A stretch of 64,000 nucleotides of DNA from Thecamonas trahens ATCC 50062 (lineage: Eukaryota; Protista; Apusomonadida), in NCBI RefSeq assembly GCF_000142905.1, contig NW_013657641.1, positions 254,907-318,906 of the forward strand. Reading direction: 5' to 3'. The notes below the pieces were generated by a model that saw only the letters and a program-made list of their open reading frames with translations, made no database searches and was not told the DNA's origin. This document shows positions 24,727 through 50,872 of this stretch, piece after piece. Position 1 is the first letter of the stretch. Each line of letters starts with the position of its first letter. The position numbers were made by a program, and so were the translations under genes.

Positions 24727-25548
24727 ATGACTGCTGCATCTGCAGCTGGCTACGCCGAGCGTGTGCTGGCTGTCCTCGGCGTGGCGTACTCGCGGGTGCT
24801 CCTGGCTCGGTTCAATGGCTCGCGAGGACACGGAAGCGATGATGCGGAGTCGGACGTGGATGTGTACATTGTGTACGCACCTTCGACAGAGGAAGTGCTT
24901 GTGGCTGGGCTGGAGGCATCAGTGGCGCCGCCGGATACGCTGACGACGTCGATCGAGGCTGGCGCCGGGCCAGGCATCGAGAAGACCACCGATGTGGCTC
25001 TGTACGAGGTTGGCAAGTTCCTCGCGCTCCTTCGAGCTGGCTCGCCGTTGGCGGTAGAGACGGTCTTTGCGCCGAGCGAGGACGTATATGTGGATCCACT
25101 TCTGGCGCCGGTGCTGGAGATGCGGGATGAGGTACTGACGCGAAAGGCGTTCCGCTCGCTGCTCGGGCACACCTCGTCCGAGTTCAAGCAGATTGAGCTG
25201 GCCGAGGCGCGCGGCGTAGGGTGGAGCAAGCTGCTGTACCATGCGCAGCGGCTGATGCTCGAGGTCGAGGCAGTGTACAGCGGGGGGCGACCGCAGGTCA
25301 AGTTTAGCGGAGAGACGCTGGCGGCGCTGATGGCGACCAAGCAAGGTAAGCTCGGCGGCGCCGGCGAGGCGGCGCTCCTGGAGAAGCTGCGGTCGCGCCA
25401 TCAGCAGCTGCAGCGCGACGACCCTACGCCGGCGCATCTGCCTCAGGCGCTGCCTGTCAAGTACGCGCCATTCAACGAGCTGCTGCTAGCAATTCGTGAG
25501 GCGCTGTGGGTTGTGCCGCCGCCGGCAGCTACGAGAGCGAGCGAATGA
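24727..25548 (+). CDS. Pol-beta-superfamily nucleotidyltransferase, PF10127/COG3541 (RlaP-like)
   Basis: GSRGHGSDDAESDVDV (GS...DxD), D..LYEVGKFL.LL..GSP...E.VF and KLLYHAQRL, all typical of this family. Confidence 0.8.
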   Translation: MTAASAAGYAERVLAVLGVAYSRVLLARFNGSRGHGSDDAESDVDVYIVYAPSTEEVLVAGLEASVAPPDTLTTSIEAGAGPGIEKTTDVALYEVGKFLALLRAGSPLAVETVFAPSEDVYVDPLLAPVLEMRDEVLTRKAFRSLLGHTSSEFKQIELAEARGVGWSKLLYHAQRLMLEVEAVYSGGRPQVKFSGETLAALMATKQGKLGGAGEAALLEKLRSRHQQLQRDDPTPAHLPQALPVKYAPFNELLLAIREALWVVPPPAATRASE

Positions 25549-43097: not shown

Positions 43098-43228
43098 TTG
43101 CCGTCATGGCGGAGCAAGTGAACGAACGATCCATGCCTTTCCCCTCAGTAGCTGTACATTGATCTGTGTCGTTGGCACAAGCGGAGTCCTGTCTGCGCCA
43201 CACGTGTCTCGTGACTGGTCCGGCTTCC

Positions 43229-44224
43229 ATGGCGTCCGAGCCTGACAGCTCTGTCATCGAGATCGCCACCGGGATTCGGCGCGTGGTCGTCTACGCCATG
43301 TCTGACCTCCATGTCGACGAGTCACCCAACTCGGTGGTCCTGGATCGGCTGGTCGACGAGCTGGAGGGCGACAGCGGCAGCGGGAGCAGTAGCGCGAGCG
43401 GCGAGCCGGAGGCCGAGAGCGCGTTCCGATTGGCCGTCGTGGCGGGTGACGTGGCGCGGCGGCACGAGGACGTCGGTGCGGCTCTGCTTGCGCTCGTGGC
43501 TGTCTTTGACGCTGTTGTCTATGTCCCAGGCAACAACGAGCTCCGGCTCAGCTCGTCGGCTCGTGGCTCGGGCATGCTCTCCACCGAGGCGTTTGAGCAG
43601 GCGCGGGCGGCGGCTGCTCGGGCCGGCGCCATTGTCGACACGGCGATTGTGGGCGATGTCCTCGTTGTTCCGCTCGCAGGATGGCACTCGGCGCACTTTG
43701 ATGGCGGCAAGCACTTTACCGGCGATGTGGCGTACCAGCGGCGATTCCTCGACTTTCGCGCCACCCGATGGCCGAGCTCGTGGCCGTCGGCCAGCCTCGA
43801 CGGCGCGCCCGACGCGGCGGCAGAGTACTTTGCCCAGTTCAATGCTGGCAACATGGCGGCGGCCAAAGCGGTGCTTCAGAGGAGGGACAAGCGGATTTCT
43901 GCGCTGATCACGGCCTCGCACTTTTTGCCTCGCCTCGACGTGCTGCCTTGGCGGGCGCGGACGTTCATGTCGTCGGACGTGGTCAAGGTCATCGGCGACG
44001 ACCGCATCGAAGACCAGATCCGCGAGCTACACACGGAGCTCGACGGCGAGCATGGTACTGCCCACGTCCACGTTTCGGGCCACGTTCACATCAATCACAA
44101 CAAGGTCTGTGAAGGCGTGCGCTACGTTCAGAACGCGCTTGGGCACCGCCGCGAGCGGGCGCGCAGCTGCTGGACGTGGCTCTCGTCGGACGATGACTAC
44201 GCACCGCTGGCGATCTTTCCCTAG
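43229..44224 (+). CDS. Calcineurin-like metallophosphoesterase (bacterial-like)
   Basis: SDLH, AGDV, PGNNEL, SHFLP and GHVH motifs. Confidence 0.85.
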   Translation: MASEPDSSVIEIATGIRRVVVYAMSDLHVDESPNSVVLDRLVDELEGDSGSGSSSASGEPEAESAFRLAVVAGDVARRHEDVGAALLALVAVFDAVVYVPGNNELRLSSSARGSGMLSTEAFEQARAAAARAGAIVDTAIVGDVLVVPLAGWHSAHFDGGKHFTGDVAYQRRFLDFRATRWPSSWPSASLDGAPDAAAEYFAQFNAGNMAAAKAVLQRRDKRISALITASHFLPRLDVLPWRARTFMSSDVVKVIGDDRIEDQIRELHTELDGEHGTAHVHVSGHVHINHNKVCEGVRYVQNALGHRRERARSCWTWLSSDDDYAPLAIFP

Positions 44225-45231
44225 CAGCTTTGCACCGGTGACGGGGCAAGGCCCGCCAGCCAGCGGCGGGCGTTGGCGCTGGTGATGGCGATGACTTCAG
44301 CGAGAGTAGCGTCCCAGGCGACAGCGAGCGCGGCAACGAGCGGCGTGTAGTCAGCAGCCTGCTCGTTGGCCTCGTACTCTTCCAAGTCCGACTCGAGCAG
44401 GACTTGCTCGCGCGGAATAAGGGCAATTGCTGCGTCAGTGAGCTTGGCGCTTCGCGGGCTTGAGTAGTTGATGGCCGGCGAGAGGCCAAAGAACAGGACG
44501 TCCGCGAGCGGGCCGCGGATGGCCAGCAGTGAGGTGATTAGCCCGGCTTTGAGCGAGACCGAATGCAGGGCGACGCCCGACGGAACAAGCCCGCGGCGGC
44601 TCGCGCTTGCCAGAAACTCAAACAGGTAGCCACCGGCCTGGACACAGTGGATGGAGACCGGGAGGCCGCGTGCAGCCGCGAGATCAAACTGGGCCTCAAA
44701 CAGCGGCTTCTGGGCGATGTTAAAGGCCAGCCGATTCCGCCCGTTCCGCGACATCTCGGCGTATCCGTCGGGCACCTCGCCATCGGCCTCGGCTTGCGGA
44801 TGCCAGCCGCGGAACTTGTCGACTCCGATCTCGCCCACAATGACTGTGTGCCCGGCCGCCGCCGCAGCGTCGAGCCGGTCGCCGAGGCGGGCGATGTAGC
44901 TCGCGACGGCGGCCGAGACAGTGGCATCGGTCGGCAGATCGTCGACTCTCAGCGACGGCAGCTCGACAACCGAGGTGGCATACCACGGATGTGTCCCGTA
45001 GCCACCGATGCGCCACGGCGAGGCCGATGCCGACGCCGCTGCCGAGTCTGGGCCCGACTCGAGCCACTCCGCGAGCATGTCCCAGTCGTCGCTCTCGGCG
45101 ACCGCCATGCTCACAGCGCCGGCGCCGACCATTTGGGACTGACCGGATCCCGTGTGGAGGTGGCAGTGGGTGTCTAGCACCTCTGTGCATGCAGCCGGCG
45201 AGAGCGGCGAGAGCGGCGAGAGCGAGGCCAT
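44221..45231 (-). CDS. TatD-family metal-dependent nuclease
   Basis: DTHCHL, GTHPWY, VGEIGVD, PVSIHCV, LHS and LLESD. Confidence 0.9.
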   Translation of the reverse strand: MASLSPLSPLSPAACTEVLDTHCHLHTGSGQSQMVGAGAVSMAVAESDDWDMLAEWLESGPDSAAASASASPWRIGGYGTHPWYATSVVELPSLRVDDLPTDATVSAAVASYIARLGDRLDAAAAAGHTVIVGEIGVDKFRGWHPQAEADGEVPDGYAEMSRNGRNRLAFNIAQKPLFEAQFDLAAARGLPVSIHCVQAGGYLFEFLASASRRGLVPSGVALHSVSLKAGLITSLLAIRGPLADVLFFGLSPAINYSSPRSAKLTDAAIALIPREQVLLESDLEEYEANEQAADYTPLVAALAVAWDATLAEVIAITSANARRWLAGLAPSPVQSC

Positions 45232-45361
45232 GTGTGGAGAGGGGTGTGTGTGTGGCTCGGTTGGTGCGGGCACGCACCCACTCATAACACACGCGGACAC
45301 GCTCTCCGTGAACACCCACGCAAGTGCTTGTGTTTGTCTTGTTCTTTAAGGTCGCTTGGAC

Positions 45362-46442
45362 TTACTTCATCTTGCGGACGTAGAAGTCGAGCTCCTCACC
45401 CTCGAGGACGTAACCGTCGGCGCGGCCGCACTGGCCAGGGCGCGAGGTGAGCTTGGCGTAGAGGCGGCCAGTGTTGAACTGGCGCTTGATGGCCTCCTCG
45501 AGCGGCTCGAGGTCAGCAGCGCGCTTGACGTGCTTGGACTGGCGCTTGACGGCCTCGGGGTTCTTGCCAAGGGCAATGCCGTAGTACGACTTGTAGTACT
45601 GGCGGAACGGGTGGCGTCAATCTGGACAATGGCCGACTTGACCAGGGTCTTGGTACGCAGGAGCTCGTTCGACGTGGCGTTGTACACGACATCGATGATG
45701 CGGCACTTGCGGGTCACAGCTGGTAGCACAGGCAGGCAGGATGTAGATGGTGAGTGGGAGGAGAGGGGAGAGGGAAGTGGGCAGTGGGAGGGGAGGGGGG
45801 GGGGGGGGCGACAATTCGACAATCTCCGGACGGATCACACCGACACAGAAGAGAGAGGGAGGGCGGGAGGAACAAGGAGGGGGGATGGGGAACGAGGCAG
45901 TGCTTACCCTCCGAGGGCCACGAGAAGTTGCCGCAGTCCAGGCGGAGGGCACGGAACTTGTAGTTGCCGCCGCGGACGCGGTACGGGTGGATGCGCTTCT
46001 CAGCGCCCGAAGACACAAGCTTGGTGTTGGCGGCCTGGCGGCCCATCTCGTACTTGCGCTTCTTGCGCCAGCCAGCGCGCTTGCCACCAGTCGCGCGGCG
46101 CTTGTGCCGCGAGTCACGAGAGATACCCTATCCGCACACATGCCGCATACACAACACCTTGTTCTGTGAGTCGCTCGCTGCTCTTAGCCTGCTTGTGGCT
46201 TGTGTTCCGCTCCCAGACTCGGTCCGCCATCACACAAAATAATTGCCCACCGCGAGGCGACGACGGCCAGCCCCCCTAGGTAGCCAGAGGCCATACCCAC
46301 AGGCATAGCCATGCACACAGGCCACAACGAGGACGCACACCTTGCGCTCTATGCCTATCTATGTCTGTGGCATCCTCCTCATGCTCTACCTGGTAGACGC
46401 CCTTCCTGACTGCGCCAATGTGCCCAAAATACTCCGTACCAT
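45362..46442 (-). CDS. RPS8: 40S ribosomal protein S8 (eS8); introns 46128-46439 and 45720-45907; frameshift near 45610
   Basis: M|[17 protein letters not shown]...[17 protein letters not shown]...[23 protein letters not shown]|[28 protein letters not shown]...[22 protein letters not shown]. Confidence 0.95.
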
Positions 46443-46860
46443 GGTCGATGTGTGTGAAGAGAGAAACGGTGCCACTCCATTCTCACTTTGCCTGCTTTGC
46501 CATTCACGCGAGCTCAACTCGCTCGCTGCCACCGAACCGAACCGAATTGGACGAATCGACCCAATCGACTTGAATCCATGATTGACACTCTCGTTGCGTA
46601 GCAACCGATGCTGAGAGGGGGAGGGGGAGGGGGGACTCGCTGTGGTTGCTGGGATGGTGCGCTGGCTTGAGGGGGTGCAGGTGAGAGAGTAGATGGGATG
46701 GGGATGGGGTGGGAGCTGATTATCGCTTGCACTCTCGATCGCCGCGTTCCATCCATAGCTCGACGTCATCAATGGAAGGTCGGCTTGGCTCGTGAGGGGC
46801 AATAGACTTGTCTCGGGAGCCTTGCTGCGGGGCGCGGACAGACGGCGGAGGAGCAAGAGG

Positions 46861-49043
46861 ATGGAGACACTGGCTGCGCTGGCAGAGATCGAGGCGGTGT
46901 CGCCGATGGCGCGGATCGAGGCGTTGGCCGAGGCGCACCATCTGCGGGTGTGGCGGGCGGCTGATGAGAGCATGGTCTCGCTCAAGTACACCAGCGAGAC
47001 CAAGCTGACGAGTACAATGGCGCGCGAGTGCCGTGGGCTGGTGCTGGAGCGCGATGATGGGCAGAGTGCGAGCGGCTGGAGGGTTGCTGCCCGGCCGATG
47101 GACAAGTTCTCAACGCCGGCGAGCCGGATGGCGCGGCCGAGGCGGCGGCCTTTGACTGGCCGTCGGCTCGGGCGTACACCAAGGCCGATGGCACGTGCAT
47201 GCTGCTCTACTACCGAGCATCGATGGAGGCGTGGCAGGTGGCGACACTCGGGTGCGGCGATGGCAGCAATGCGGTGACGCGGAGTGTGGCGGACAAGACT
47301 TGCGGCAAGGCAAGCGGGGCAGTCGAGACAGCGATGCCGGCGTCGGTGAGCACGGCCGGCACCTTTGCCGACCTGTTCTGGGCTGTCTTCCACGACGTCG
47401 AGGGCTATGCACTGCCGGACGACCGGTCGGTGACGTACGTGTTCGAGCTCACTTCGCCGCGGAACCGCGTGGTTGTTGTCCACGATACAGCGGCGCTGGA
47501 GCTGGTGGCGATGCGGGAGACGGCGAGCGGCGATGAACTGCGGCTGGATGCTCCGCAAGGTTCTGGTTTCCGGCCTGTAGCGGAGAGATGGAGGGGGAGA
47601 GCAGGCGACAGTGCGGCATCTGCGCTGGCAACGCTCCGGTCCGAGTTTGTAGGCGTGAGCCCGCTGCGGTTCGAGGGCTACGTGGTGGTCGACGCGGCGT
47701 GGCGGCGGCTCAAGGTCAAGCATCCCGGTTATGTGGCCATCCATCACCTGGACAACCGATTTGATGTCCGCAACGTGACCAACGTCATCCGATCGGGTGA
47801 GTCGAGGGAGTTCCTCACGTACTTTCCTGACTATGCACCGCTCTTTGACGACATTGCGGCACGGTTTGAGCGCCTCGCGGCACAGCTTGCGGCCGAGGCC
47901 GAGGCGCTGGCAAACGTGGGCGCGGGCAAGGCGGCTTCGCGGATGCGGGCCACATCGGTGCTGCCTGAAGCGCTGGCGCTCGTGGCCAGCGGGGCGACAA
48001 AGGTCCGCGGCGCTCTGGCGCAGATTGAGCTCAAGGCGCTGCTCGGCGCGCTGCGGCTGAAGGACGTCAAGGCCAAGTCAGGCAAGCGCAGGGCGGCTCG
48101 AAAGCGGGCGCGCAAGGCGGCTGCGGCCGCAGGAGCTGCGACGCCATGTGGCGGTGGAAGCGACGAGGGTGCAGGCTTGGGCGATGGCTGGATGGCGGCG
48201 GCAAGCCGGTGGCGCCACGGCTCGCCCGACTCGACCGACGTCGACGTGGTTTATGTGGTGCCAGCAGGGGTGGCGCTTCCGAGCTCGAGCGAGCTGATCG
48301 AGTTTGTGAGGAGAGGCAAGGAAGCCGGCGAAGATCGCAACGTGGTGCAGCTCGATGCGAGCGGGCAGGTAGCGTTTACGCTCAAGGGTGAGGCTGACGA
48401 GGTCAACAACGCGCTGGTAGCAACTGTAGGGCTGCATGCCAGCAACGCCGGGCGCACATGCCCGATTGCGGGCGTCCGGCGGCGGCGGGTGCTGCAAAAG
48501 GCGCTCAATGTGAGCTCTGCACTGGCGGGTATTGTGGCACACGCGACGAGCGACGAGGAGTTGCGGGGCGCGTGTAAGAAGGTGCTCCGCAATCGCGATG
48601 GGCGGGCGCGGTTTGCCGGCCTGGCGCGGGTGCTGGGCGGAGCGAGAGCGGAGCATGTGTGTGCCACCATTGACGTCGACGCGCGCAAGGCCGTGGCGAT
48701 GCAGCTTGGCCTCGCGGTCCTGCTCTCCCGCGGCATCGAGGTGTACACCAAGGGCGAGGTGGCGGCGGCGCTGCCGGGCCTCGCGCCGCTGCTGGGGCGG
48801 GCGGCGGAGCCTGGGGCGGACGCTGTGGGCGCGCTGGGCGATGCCATCGACGAGTGGGCGAGCGGCATGGCCGGACTGCAGTGGAAGAAGGTCAAGGGCG
48901 GATGGATCGAGGTACGGGAAGGGCGAGCCGAAGGCGGAGGCATGGCTGTGGGTGCGGTGGCCGCCGAGGTGCGCGAGGCCGGCAAAGGTGGACTGCGGGT
49001 GCGCAGCAAGGAGTGGCGTGTGGCGTATGAGGGCATGAGGTAA
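46861..49043 (+). CDS. T4 Rnl1-type ATP-dependent RNA ligase fused to a C-terminal Pol-beta-like nucleotidyltransferase domain (frameshift near 47110)
   Basis: Ligase motifs ARECRGLVL, DKF[F]NAGE, YTKADGT (motif I KxDG at 47181), TYVFELTSPRNRVVV, FEGYVVVD and RLKVKHPGY. After a basic linker come HGSPDSTDVDVVY (48216-48245), EDRNVV and KGEADEVNNAL. Confidence 0.8.
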
Positions 49044-49324: not shown

Positions 49325-49923
49325 ACACAAAGAGCGCGACGACGTGAATCACCTTGCACGTGGCAAGCACCGAGTTGCCCGAAAGAATGAACGAGCCCCT
49401 GCCCTCTCATCGTCAAGGAGTACAACAACCATATGGGCGGCGTCGATCTCAACTCGCGCCTGCGCGCCTCGCTCTCCACTGCGCCGCCGAGGACGCGCAA
49501 GTGGTGGCACGCCATCTTGTACTGGATGCTGGACGCCGCGCTCATCAACGCGTACGCCCTCTACGCCTATCATCGACGCCCTCGCCGCCAGCGCCGACGC
49601 CGTCGGCTCCACGCCGTCGCGCAAGCGGAAGCGTCCCTCTGCAGCGGCTGCTTGTCATCACCACTCTCCCCAGCAAGCCGCTCTGCGACGCGACTGCCTC
49701 GCCTGCCGGAAGGTTCATGGTAAGCGATCGCGACCGCGGACCTCTTGCGCCGCGTGCGGCGCCCATCTCTGCATCGCCGACTGTTTTCTGTTGTGGCCCA
49801 CTCGTGGCCGCAGCAGACATTAACACATTGAACTACTATTCTACCGCAATTGATGGACGTTGCGACGTCTGTGGAGCGCAGCTTGTGCGACGGACAAATT
49901 TGTCCATTCCGTACCGTAAAGGT
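49325..49923 (+). mobile_element. piggyBac-family transposon remnant, copy 2, ending at TTAA 49924-49927
   Basis: PLIVKEYNNHMGGVD...RTRKWWHAILYWMLDAALINAY, a Cys-rich domain, the subterminal palindrome GGACAAATTTGTCC, and the end GTACCGTAAAGGT followed by TTAA. Frameshifted. Confidence 0.85.
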
Positions 49924-50872
49924 TTAAGCGTCGGCGTTGACGTTGAGGCCCATCGGGACGATGGGGCCGTCGTCCTCGTCCTTGGGCTCGAGGATGGTGA
50001 TGACATCGGGCTGCGGGACCTTGACGCCACCAAGCTTGCCCTCGGGGTCCCAAGGGAGCATGATGGTGACCTTGATGCCGAGAACGCCCTGGCGGAGGAG
50101 GACGTGGCGGGTGGCCTTGTCGAGGTAGGCCTTGGCGGGGTGACCGGTCTTGATCATGTAGCCGTCAACGAACTTCATGGCCTTGGCACGGGCAGCACGG
50201 AGCTTGCCAGTGACGATGACCTCGCAGCCCTTGGCGCCAGCCTCCATGATGAAGCGGACGACACCGTAGCAAGCGCGGCGGACGGGGAGGCCACCGGCGA
50301 GCTTGTAGCGGAGCGACTCGGCCTGGGCAATGGCGCAGAGACCACGGTTCTGGACCTTCTGGGCGTACAGCTCGATGCCGCCGTCGGGGAAGTTGAACCG
50401 CTGCTGGACAACAGCCGTCAGCTCGCGAATGCGGCGGCCGCGCTCGCCAAGCACGTTCTGGGTCTGGGTGGCCTTGATGATGATCTCGGTCCGCGAGGGG
50501 GTGACCCGGACGTTGACACCGGCGTAGCCGTCGTCGGCAAGCTCGGCAGTCAGCATGTCGTTGAGCTCGGCGTAGAACACGCCATCGGCGACAAACTGGT
50601 GACCGTAGTTGCTCACTGTGAGTTGCTTGCCCATCATGACGGTCAGCAGACAGACAAAAGCTGACAAATCGTCCTTTTGCTGGCCATGCCATCCCTCCCT
50701 CCCCCCCACTCCGTCCACCACCACAGACAGCAGGGGCAGTACGCCAGGCCCACACCAGCAAGGTGTACTGTCCACCACCTCCGCCTATACACATGCTGTG
50801 GCTCGGCACCGTATGCTACACCCCACCCTCACCCGCTGGTCGTACCTTGCGCTTCTTAGACACGGCAGCCAT
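49924..50872 (-). CDS. RPS3: 40S ribosomal protein S3 (uS3); intron 50596-50845
   Basis: MAAVSKKRK|[12 protein letters not shown]...[14 protein letters not shown]...[15 protein letters not shown]...[19 protein letters not shown]. Confidence 0.98.

Follow-up and report, generated by a model that had tools for sequence, protein, structure and literature searches.

The DNA analysed here (the window) is a stretch of 64,000 nucleotides from Thecamonas trahens, a marine protist, with about 30 genes packed into its 64 kb (i.e., approximately one per 2 kb). At 46861-49043 on the forward strand lies a gene predicted to encode a T4 Rnl1-type RNA ligase, followed by a basic linker and a putative nucleotidyltransferase (NTase) domain. 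In the window sequence, a frame change at 47109/47110 splits this gene into two overlapping frames. The original prediction held that one base was missing at about 47110 and that the intact product had about 727 amino acids (aa), and both points were confirmed by metagenome contigs and translation. An additional base after 47109 is present in contigs from two of four DNA runs; the two runs belong to different studies, and their contigs are nearly identical to the window. In the other two runs, no listed piece covers the site. In run X1, a single contig (record 4, 46679-48346) includes the missing base and runs from the ligase through the linker into the first part of the second domain; a contig of run X4 (record 18, 47081-47682) includes it as well, extending just 29 bases to the left of the site. 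With the base restored, 46861-49043 becomes one ORF of 727 aa with a single stop, and, in line with the intronless gene proposed, this ORF needs no intron. GC3 is 0.80 in both halves, the same as in a neighbouring gene. All of the ligase motifs named previously are found in the restored protein (ECRG at residue 56, KFFN at 82, KADG at 108, FEL at 195, EGYVV at 272, and KVK at 285), and HGSPDSTDVD is located at residue 453.

The 47109/47110 frameshift is therefore an assembly error, and the gene is real and intact. The presence of the missing base in contigs of two independent metagenome studies led us to reject a pseudogene with a genuine frameshift, and a second one-base error at 45608, inside the neighbouring RPS8 and with the base present in both DNA and RNA contigs, indicates that this assembly drops single bases. 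The public record of the gene (AMSG_08277 of T. trahens, uncharacterised) is a 701-aa model that, because of the one-base error, splices round the conserved RGLVL..KFFN stretch and thereby loses conserved ligase residues; a Pfam scan of this model gave no match, and the model can now be corrected. As for expression, RNA-library contigs from three runs and two studies contain identical short exact pieces of the gene (151-182 nt, depth about 2), and spliced RPS8 is seen beside them, its first intron (46127-46438) being visible in RNA contigs. One RNA-library contig (X18 record 17, 47570-47725) starts inside the second predicted intron of AMSG_08277, which is a weak observation as DNA carry-over is possible. 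These pieces are a hint of expression only, because assembled contigs neither rank genes by level nor rule out DNA as their source. If the locus were a decayed or silent acquisition, this would be consistent with the short, shallow RNA pieces, with the lack of any RNA contig spanning both domains, and with the long branch of the C-terminal domain, in which a small number of otherwise conserved residues are replaced (F to M, Q to L). We nevertheless regard such decay or silence as extremely unlikely, given the restored base, the like error in RPS8, the retention of all catalytic-looking residues, and the existence of six homologous fusions.

The gene is flanked by ribosomal protein genes at close to the distances first described (about 420 and 900 bp): RPS8 is oriented head-to-head with it, starting at 46442, 419 bp from the ATG of the fusion gene, and the stop of RPS3, at 49924, lies 880 bp from the fusion-gene stop. 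A high-copy repeat containing a DDE_Tnp_1_7 transposase fragment (49394-49922; depth 100-400 vs. about 6) lies between the fusion gene and RPS3. At the gene density of this window, short distances between genes are to be expected, and the suggested co-regulation with RPS8 and RPS3 is unsupported in view of this density, the transposon remnant before RPS3, and the different neighbours of L059/L060, the one homologous fusion locus whose neighbours could be compared and which has no ribosomal protein gene alongside. At that locus, a silicon-transporter-like fragment adjoins the fusion gene (L059:2499-2816; E 1.2e-5, under the cut-off). In the window, a calcineurin-like phosphoesterase gene (a weak Pfam match, E 6e-4) and a TatD nuclease gene are arranged tail to tail at 43163-45345, 1.5-3.7 kb upstream; a healing role for either would be speculative.

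The N-terminal half of the protein (46861-48074, forward strand) is, as predicted from homologues, motifs, and profile, a member of the T4 Rnl1-type ATP-dependent RNA ligase family, with a C-terminal helical part. A profile of the fusion clade matches T4 Rnl1 (2c5u) with E 8.6e-16, in agreement with the initial assignment, and motifs I (K108), III (E196), IV (E272), and V (K285/K287) are present, together with R57 and K82. Related sequences (29-41% identity) are standalone proteins with a length of about 360 aa, and PF09511 was found in 50 of 55 ligase-half homologues (the protein itself and four outliers set aside, P0004-P0055 all carry it). Arg54 and Lys75 of T4 Rnl1 are described as essential and needed for ATP binding (PMC6379707), and alignment to the T4 enzyme indicates that their equivalents are kept in the window ligase. 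The motif Ia lysine (SKG in T4) is absent, with Thr or Ser in its place in the Rnl1-NTase fusion clade, and it is likewise lacking in all 49 (of 51) standalone relatives in which the site was located; this looks like a trait of the subfamily, yet it is a caveat to the prediction. Following the ligase is a Lys/Arg-rich, low-complexity linker (48060-48200, forward strand), which had been noted as basic in the original prediction, and a basic stretch occurs at the same place in seven of the seven Rnl1-NTase fusions.

The C-terminal domain, also on the forward strand, consists of a predicted N-lobe (48201-48485, from alignments and models), a helical C-lobe (48486-48872) with conserved basic residues and ExYTK, and a beta-rich tail modelled at low confidence (48873-49040), where many relatives hold the eroded start of an Rnl1 domain. 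The N-lobe contains a beta-hairpin with HGS-x4-DxD (48216-48245), a helix, a strand with EDRN, a helix with KGxxDExNN, and a conserved Thr and His. Word-based searches with this half returned either no match or the gene itself alone, and HMMER (E<=0.001) recovered a family that comprises, when clustered at 50% identity, at least 198 clusters. This family is without a name in the resources searched: Pfam had no match on the C-terminal domain in any of 150 scanned members, NCBIfam and PHROGs gave, for 77 members, single stray matches and nothing consistent, PADLOC matched none of 12 members, no PDB sequence names the family at the sequence level, and a plasmid search with one member found no match.

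Members of the family share the signature [HF]GSx[DN]SxDxD, followed by [ND]RN, KGxxDExNN, T..LH, several basic residues, and ExY[TS]K, and the window copy keeps every near-invariant polar residue except one Gln. GS followed by DxD is present in 145 of 151 proteins (rows picked by this motif, with six lacking it), and it is invariant in family alignments that were not filtered on it. The domain was originally assigned to the Pol-beta nucleotidyltransferases by this motif, which holds for the GS and DxD themselves, but the spacer has four residues rather than the 10 of the MNT type, and is thus atypical. MNT enzymes are described as having GS-x10-DxD (PMC13000451). Neither structural model of the domain has a helix in the four-residue spacer. 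In addition, the likely site of the third Asp, a position assigned from strand order and not by superposition, is Asn in 143 of 145 proteins; conserved acids nearby (in GSxD and DExNN) might substitute for it.

The AlphaFold model of the C-terminal half (pLDDT 87) has an alpha/beta lobe and a helical lobe. For the model of the whole domain, the top 11 VIA matches are all Pol-beta nucleotidyltransferases, including ANT(9), AadA, and HalB, with Z 6.8-8.0 and rmsd 4.2-5.2 over about 170 residues, near the tool's threshold for a common arrangement; the best of them is middling (Z 8.0, rmsd 4.3), and the next unrelated row scores 4.8. Foldseek gave no PDB match at E<=0.001 (best E 0.009). The original prediction expected PF09511 and a Pol-beta fold; with the window protein halves searched alone, the Pfam scores fell under the cut-off. 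Pol-beta-fold nucleotidyltransferases are the best match for the modelled C-terminal half, whose putative active site would be a rebuilt one. This assignment relies on the whole domain and the motif, as the N-lobe alone ties between two folds: tRNA splicing endonucleases score Z 4.9 (59 residues at rmsd 2.6; Foldseek E 0.03), against Z 4.0-4.6 for Pol-beta enzymes. The tRNA splicing endonuclease family has a Tyr-His-Lys triad. That this half is instead a nuclease-like or RNA-binding module, with a splicing-endonuclease-like lobe that trims or holds RNA ends for the ligase, would agree with this N-lobe match and with the atypical motif spacing. It is very unlikely, because the endonuclease match is limited to residues 1-63 while Pol-beta enzymes span both lobes with Z 7-8, and conservation falls on GS, DxD, and Asn rather than on the triad. 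ESM Atlas neighbours also fall in clusters with automatic nucleotidyltransferase names, weakly by the tool's own recognition score.

The original prediction called for a search in giant viruses, phages, bacteria, and protists, and members of the C-terminal family were found in all of these. The phage members come from Lak megaphages, Bacillus phage G (gp208, AEO93467.1, a standalone protein of 236 aa), and Salicola phage SCTP-2 (gp171), in 19 records; those of giant viruses were identified by fold in klosneuvirus, terrestrivirus, and indivirus proteins (four matches, E<=0.001). The bacterial members are from five genomes, three of which are Planctomycetota, plus one Myxococcota bin, and the protist members are from Thecamonas, Pelomyxa, Acrasis, and Balamuthia. 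The distribution scans used exact short patterns, and so undercount the family.

An Rnl1 domain is present in 15 of the 150 best family members (by Pfam in 13, and by a local profile in the window protein and P0061), with the ligase first in seven and last in eight. The ligase-first proteins form one group in both domain trees (SH-aLRT 95 in the NTase tree and 99 in the ligase tree, the latter with six rows), and the ligase-last proteins, whose ligases belong to a distant subfamily, form a separate group; both are quick trees without a root, have long branches and skewed composition, and show no donor. They do show two fusion events, in opposite orders. The claim of an undescribed architecture stands insofar as we did not find it in the literature searched, but it is not a one-off, with six more Rnl1-NTase proteins and an independent NTase-Rnl1 group. 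Of the seven ligase-first proteins, two belong to named eukaryotes and one more is on eukaryote-like contigs, and the Acrasis and Balamuthia members have no intact ligase.

The ligase is not the only fusion partner. An NT5C-type HAD phosphatase domain was found in 10 of the 150 best members (eight over the cut-off), HAD_PNKP in one, and a P-loop kinase in one. The Pelomyxa homologue combines in one chain the ligase, the NTase, HAD_SAK_1, and two HxT motifs of a 2H domain. Further, among 112 members without an intact downstream ligase, 27 contain an eroded Rnl1 stretch (E<=1e-3), compared to none of 112 reversed controls, which suggests an early origin of the NTase-Rnl1 chain within the family. 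When the other ligase subfamily was used, the test gave weak scores (best non-fusion E 0.006). An eroded-ligase tail was looked for in the window protein and not detected. The HAD (NT5C-like)/NTase/eroded-Rnl1 architecture is found at L057:4532-6304 and in P0063, P0077, P0079, P0089, P0118, P0163, and P0167, at least once on a eukaryote-like contig beside a mitochondrial carrier gene.

Gene neighbourhoods were compared at 93 distinct loci (118 fetched, merged at 90%), of which nine contain intact Rnl1 fusions and one an eroded ligase. A separate Rnl1 gene is present at five loci; in each case it lies no more than 0.9 kb away, although flanks of up to 6 kb were covered. Overall, Rnl1, Pnk-HD (a Pnk-type kinase fused to HD), Thg1, or RlaP is fused or within 1.5 kb at 22 of the 93 loci; the other 71, many on short contigs, have none of the five tested repair genes within 1.5 kb. 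For this count, profiles for Pnk-HD and Thg1 were derived from the neighbouring genes of these same loci, and HAD fusions were left out; the Pfam neighbour scans covered 131 ORFs in one set and 149 of 193 in another. Two loci have a compact NTase/Pnk-HD/Rnl1 operon with overlapping stops and starts (L058:5971-8753, among housekeeping genes of a bacterial chromosome, and L082:814-3498), and the abutting genes at L012 are in the order Rnl1/NTase/Pnk-HD. Thg1 is likewise an operon partner of the family. In phages, repair clusters at L071:2607-8415, L018:4051-7618, and L072:1-2686 line up genes for Rnl1, the NTase, a second Pol-beta enzyme, and Pnk-HD, the second Pol-beta enzyme of L071 being RlaP-like. 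Elsewhere, the NTase gene is flanked by genes for microbial PARG and a dual-specificity phosphatase (L063:787-3253 and L088:3647-6104), is followed by PARG in L031, or has NADAR nearby in L024, a possible connection with ADP-ribose turnover.

At the genome level, the 26 virus records with the family contain a PF09414 ligase in 18, Rnl1 in 10, RlaP in 15, and RtcB in two, and the eight near-complete ones contain them in eight, four, six, and none, respectively; these counts have no matched baseline, and PF09414 was also matched in six of 14 control genomes. The occurrence of PF09414 and Rnl1 with no RtcB in the near-complete records fits a 3'-OH/5'-P pathway. By association, a role of the C-terminal family in RNA repair is quite likely.

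We lean, if only slightly, toward the analogy-based reading that the window protein repairs broken RNA, probably tRNA, by extension and then sealing. The break would first be healed, leaving a 3'-OH end, to which the predicted nucleotidyltransferase half would add a nucleotide, before the Rnl1-type half would seal the break. This order fits the HAD phosphatase fusions and the link to 3'-OH/5'-P ligases, not RtcB. The concept is already known from RlaP (PF10127), which is reported to add 1-2 NMP to RNA 3'-OH ends in vitro and to rescue aminoacylation of base-lacking tRNA after ligation by T4 Rnl1 (PMC12776372). Defence of a bacterivore against the ribotoxins of its prey is a plausible but unsupported setting. 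Arguing against extension followed by sealing are the features of the model (the middling fold match, the spacer of four residues without a helix, and Asn at the likely third-Asp site), the acceptors of the nearest relatives with solved structures (antibiotics or, for priming, a protein tyrosine, instead of RNA), the presence of RlaP in the same genomes or operons, and the 71 of 93 loci without tested repair genes.

The C-terminal family is not RlaP. Identity of the two was ruled out by a profile-profile probability of 0.8%, with only 20 columns aligning, at the motif, with a 6-residue gap, and PF10127 matched none of 150 family members. The same model does detect a true RlaP elsewhere in the window, a canonical gene at 24727-25548 on the forward strand (PF10127 E 1.3e-13, GS-x10-DxD), 21 kb from the fusion gene. 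RlaP has a Pol-beta-type N-lobe and a helical C-lobe, as is predicted for the C-terminal family, and it is described in phages, bacteria, and some eukaryotes as a companion of enzymes that heal RNA ends and of RNA ligases (PMC12776372; PMC7824862), an association with RNA ligases that the C-terminal family shares in our neighbour scans. It differs from this family in its GS-DxD spacer (about 10 residues vs. four); the C-terminal family is, unlike RlaP, fused to Rnl1 in one chain, and has no RtcB alongside it in the eight near-complete virus records.

RlaP already performs extension and yet co-occurs with the family (in 15 of 26 virus records, directly adjacent in L071, and in the window), so the two may do different things. 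The family could act at a different step of repair, handling an adenylate or phosphate, e.g., by running in reverse to remove the dead-end 5'-AppRNA that the ligase leaves behind, or by capping a terminal phosphate with NMP. Such a step would avoid an unattractive redundancy with RlaP, and a phosphate acceptor, for which deprotonation is unnecessary, would be compatible with Asn at the third-Asp position; the family is also tied to 5'-P ligases in both fusion orders, and the adenylyl-removing domain of GlnE is among the weaker fold matches (1v4a, Z 4.0). However, the repeated HAD phosphatase fusions point to a 3'-OH product, and phages are described as keeping several paralogous ligases (PMC7824862), so that co-occurrence need not mean a different reaction; we therefore consider a separate step possible but improbable. 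In its broadest form, and as speculation with the balance of probability clearly against it, the family would be a second nucleotidyltransferase arm of RNA repair, with a rebuilt Pol-beta site, lacking the phosphate-binding helix and with Asn for the third Asp, that serves a new step (such as AppRNA proofreading or terminal phosphate activation); it would have started as an Rnl1 chain, and one protist line would later have joined it to another Rnl1. If true, this arm would extend across bacteria, several lineages of protists, klosneuviruses, and megaphages (Lak, phage G).

The structural matches raise another alternative, i.e., that the family comprises transferases for proteins or small molecules (silencing a ribotoxin, tuning the ligase by AMPylation, or making an oligonucleotide) and is a counter-defence partner of RNA-repair kits. 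The best fold matches of the model are ANT(9)/AadA, Hailong HalB (both KNTase-like with a helical C-lobe), DrrA, and MNT antitoxins; MNT enzymes are reported to AMPylate HEPN RNases (PMC13000451) and HalB to prime on its own tyrosine (PMC13434031), and an adjacent ligase is absent from most loci. ANT(9)/AadA and HalB have 6-14% identity to the C-terminal half at rmsd 4-5, with no sequence-level match, and neither resistance nor HalA-like genes were found among the scanned neighbours of family members. The helical lobe has no conserved His (among columns conserved at >=60%), and thus no RxxxxH RNase motif, which is a feature of the fused MNT-HEPN toxin-antitoxin FhepTA, and 19 of 145 proteins have Phe instead of the ExYTK tyrosine. 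With PADLOC also negative for the 12 members searched, and with end-healing and sealing enzymes, not toxins or channels, as the recurring partners, we find such a transferase distinctly unlikely, and retain extension followed by sealing as our working reading.

These results would add an unnamed family of predicted enzymes to the kit with which phages and cells repair RNA against tRNA-cutting defences, and place a repair enzyme of bacterial/phage style in free-living protists. Because small standalone members and natural single-chain ligase fusions exist, the reaction is directly testable with the published RlaP assays, and such a test may reveal a new repair step, as the family occurs beside RlaP in the same operons and genomes. 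An enzyme that extends and seals in one chain could also be a useful RNA tool.

What is new, within the literature searched, is the unnamed family and its single-chain Rnl1 fusions. The repair transferases named in the available portion of a jumbo-phage survey are RlaP, the CCA-adding enzyme, and Thg1, with the C-terminal family not among them (PMC7824862). We found neither the family nor its single-chain fusions in print in a search whose scope excluded the Burroughs and Aravind 2016 survey and the supplement of PMC7824862, which may list the family.

Compared to the established systems, the ligase half is of the same Rnl1 type as in T4 Rnl1 plus Pnkp and in fungal Trl1, with the Arg54/Lys75 equivalents and motifs I, III, IV, and V, and relatives of the family share operons with a Pnk-type kinase, reminiscent of T4 Pnkp. 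The ligase half differs from T4 Rnl1 in the motif Ia lysine missing from its subfamily. As originally predicted, the window chain has no kinase or phosphatase domain; it has no CPD domain either, and in place of the healing domains of Pnkp and Trl1 it has the predicted nucleotidyltransferase. The "Swiss army knife" RNA repair proteins of eukaryotes are multidomain, whereas the window protein has just two domains. A HAD_SAK_2 gene lies two genes from a phage family member, and the Pelomyxa homologue resembles the "Swiss army knife" proteins, adding HAD_SAK_1 and 2H to the same ligase-NTase core.
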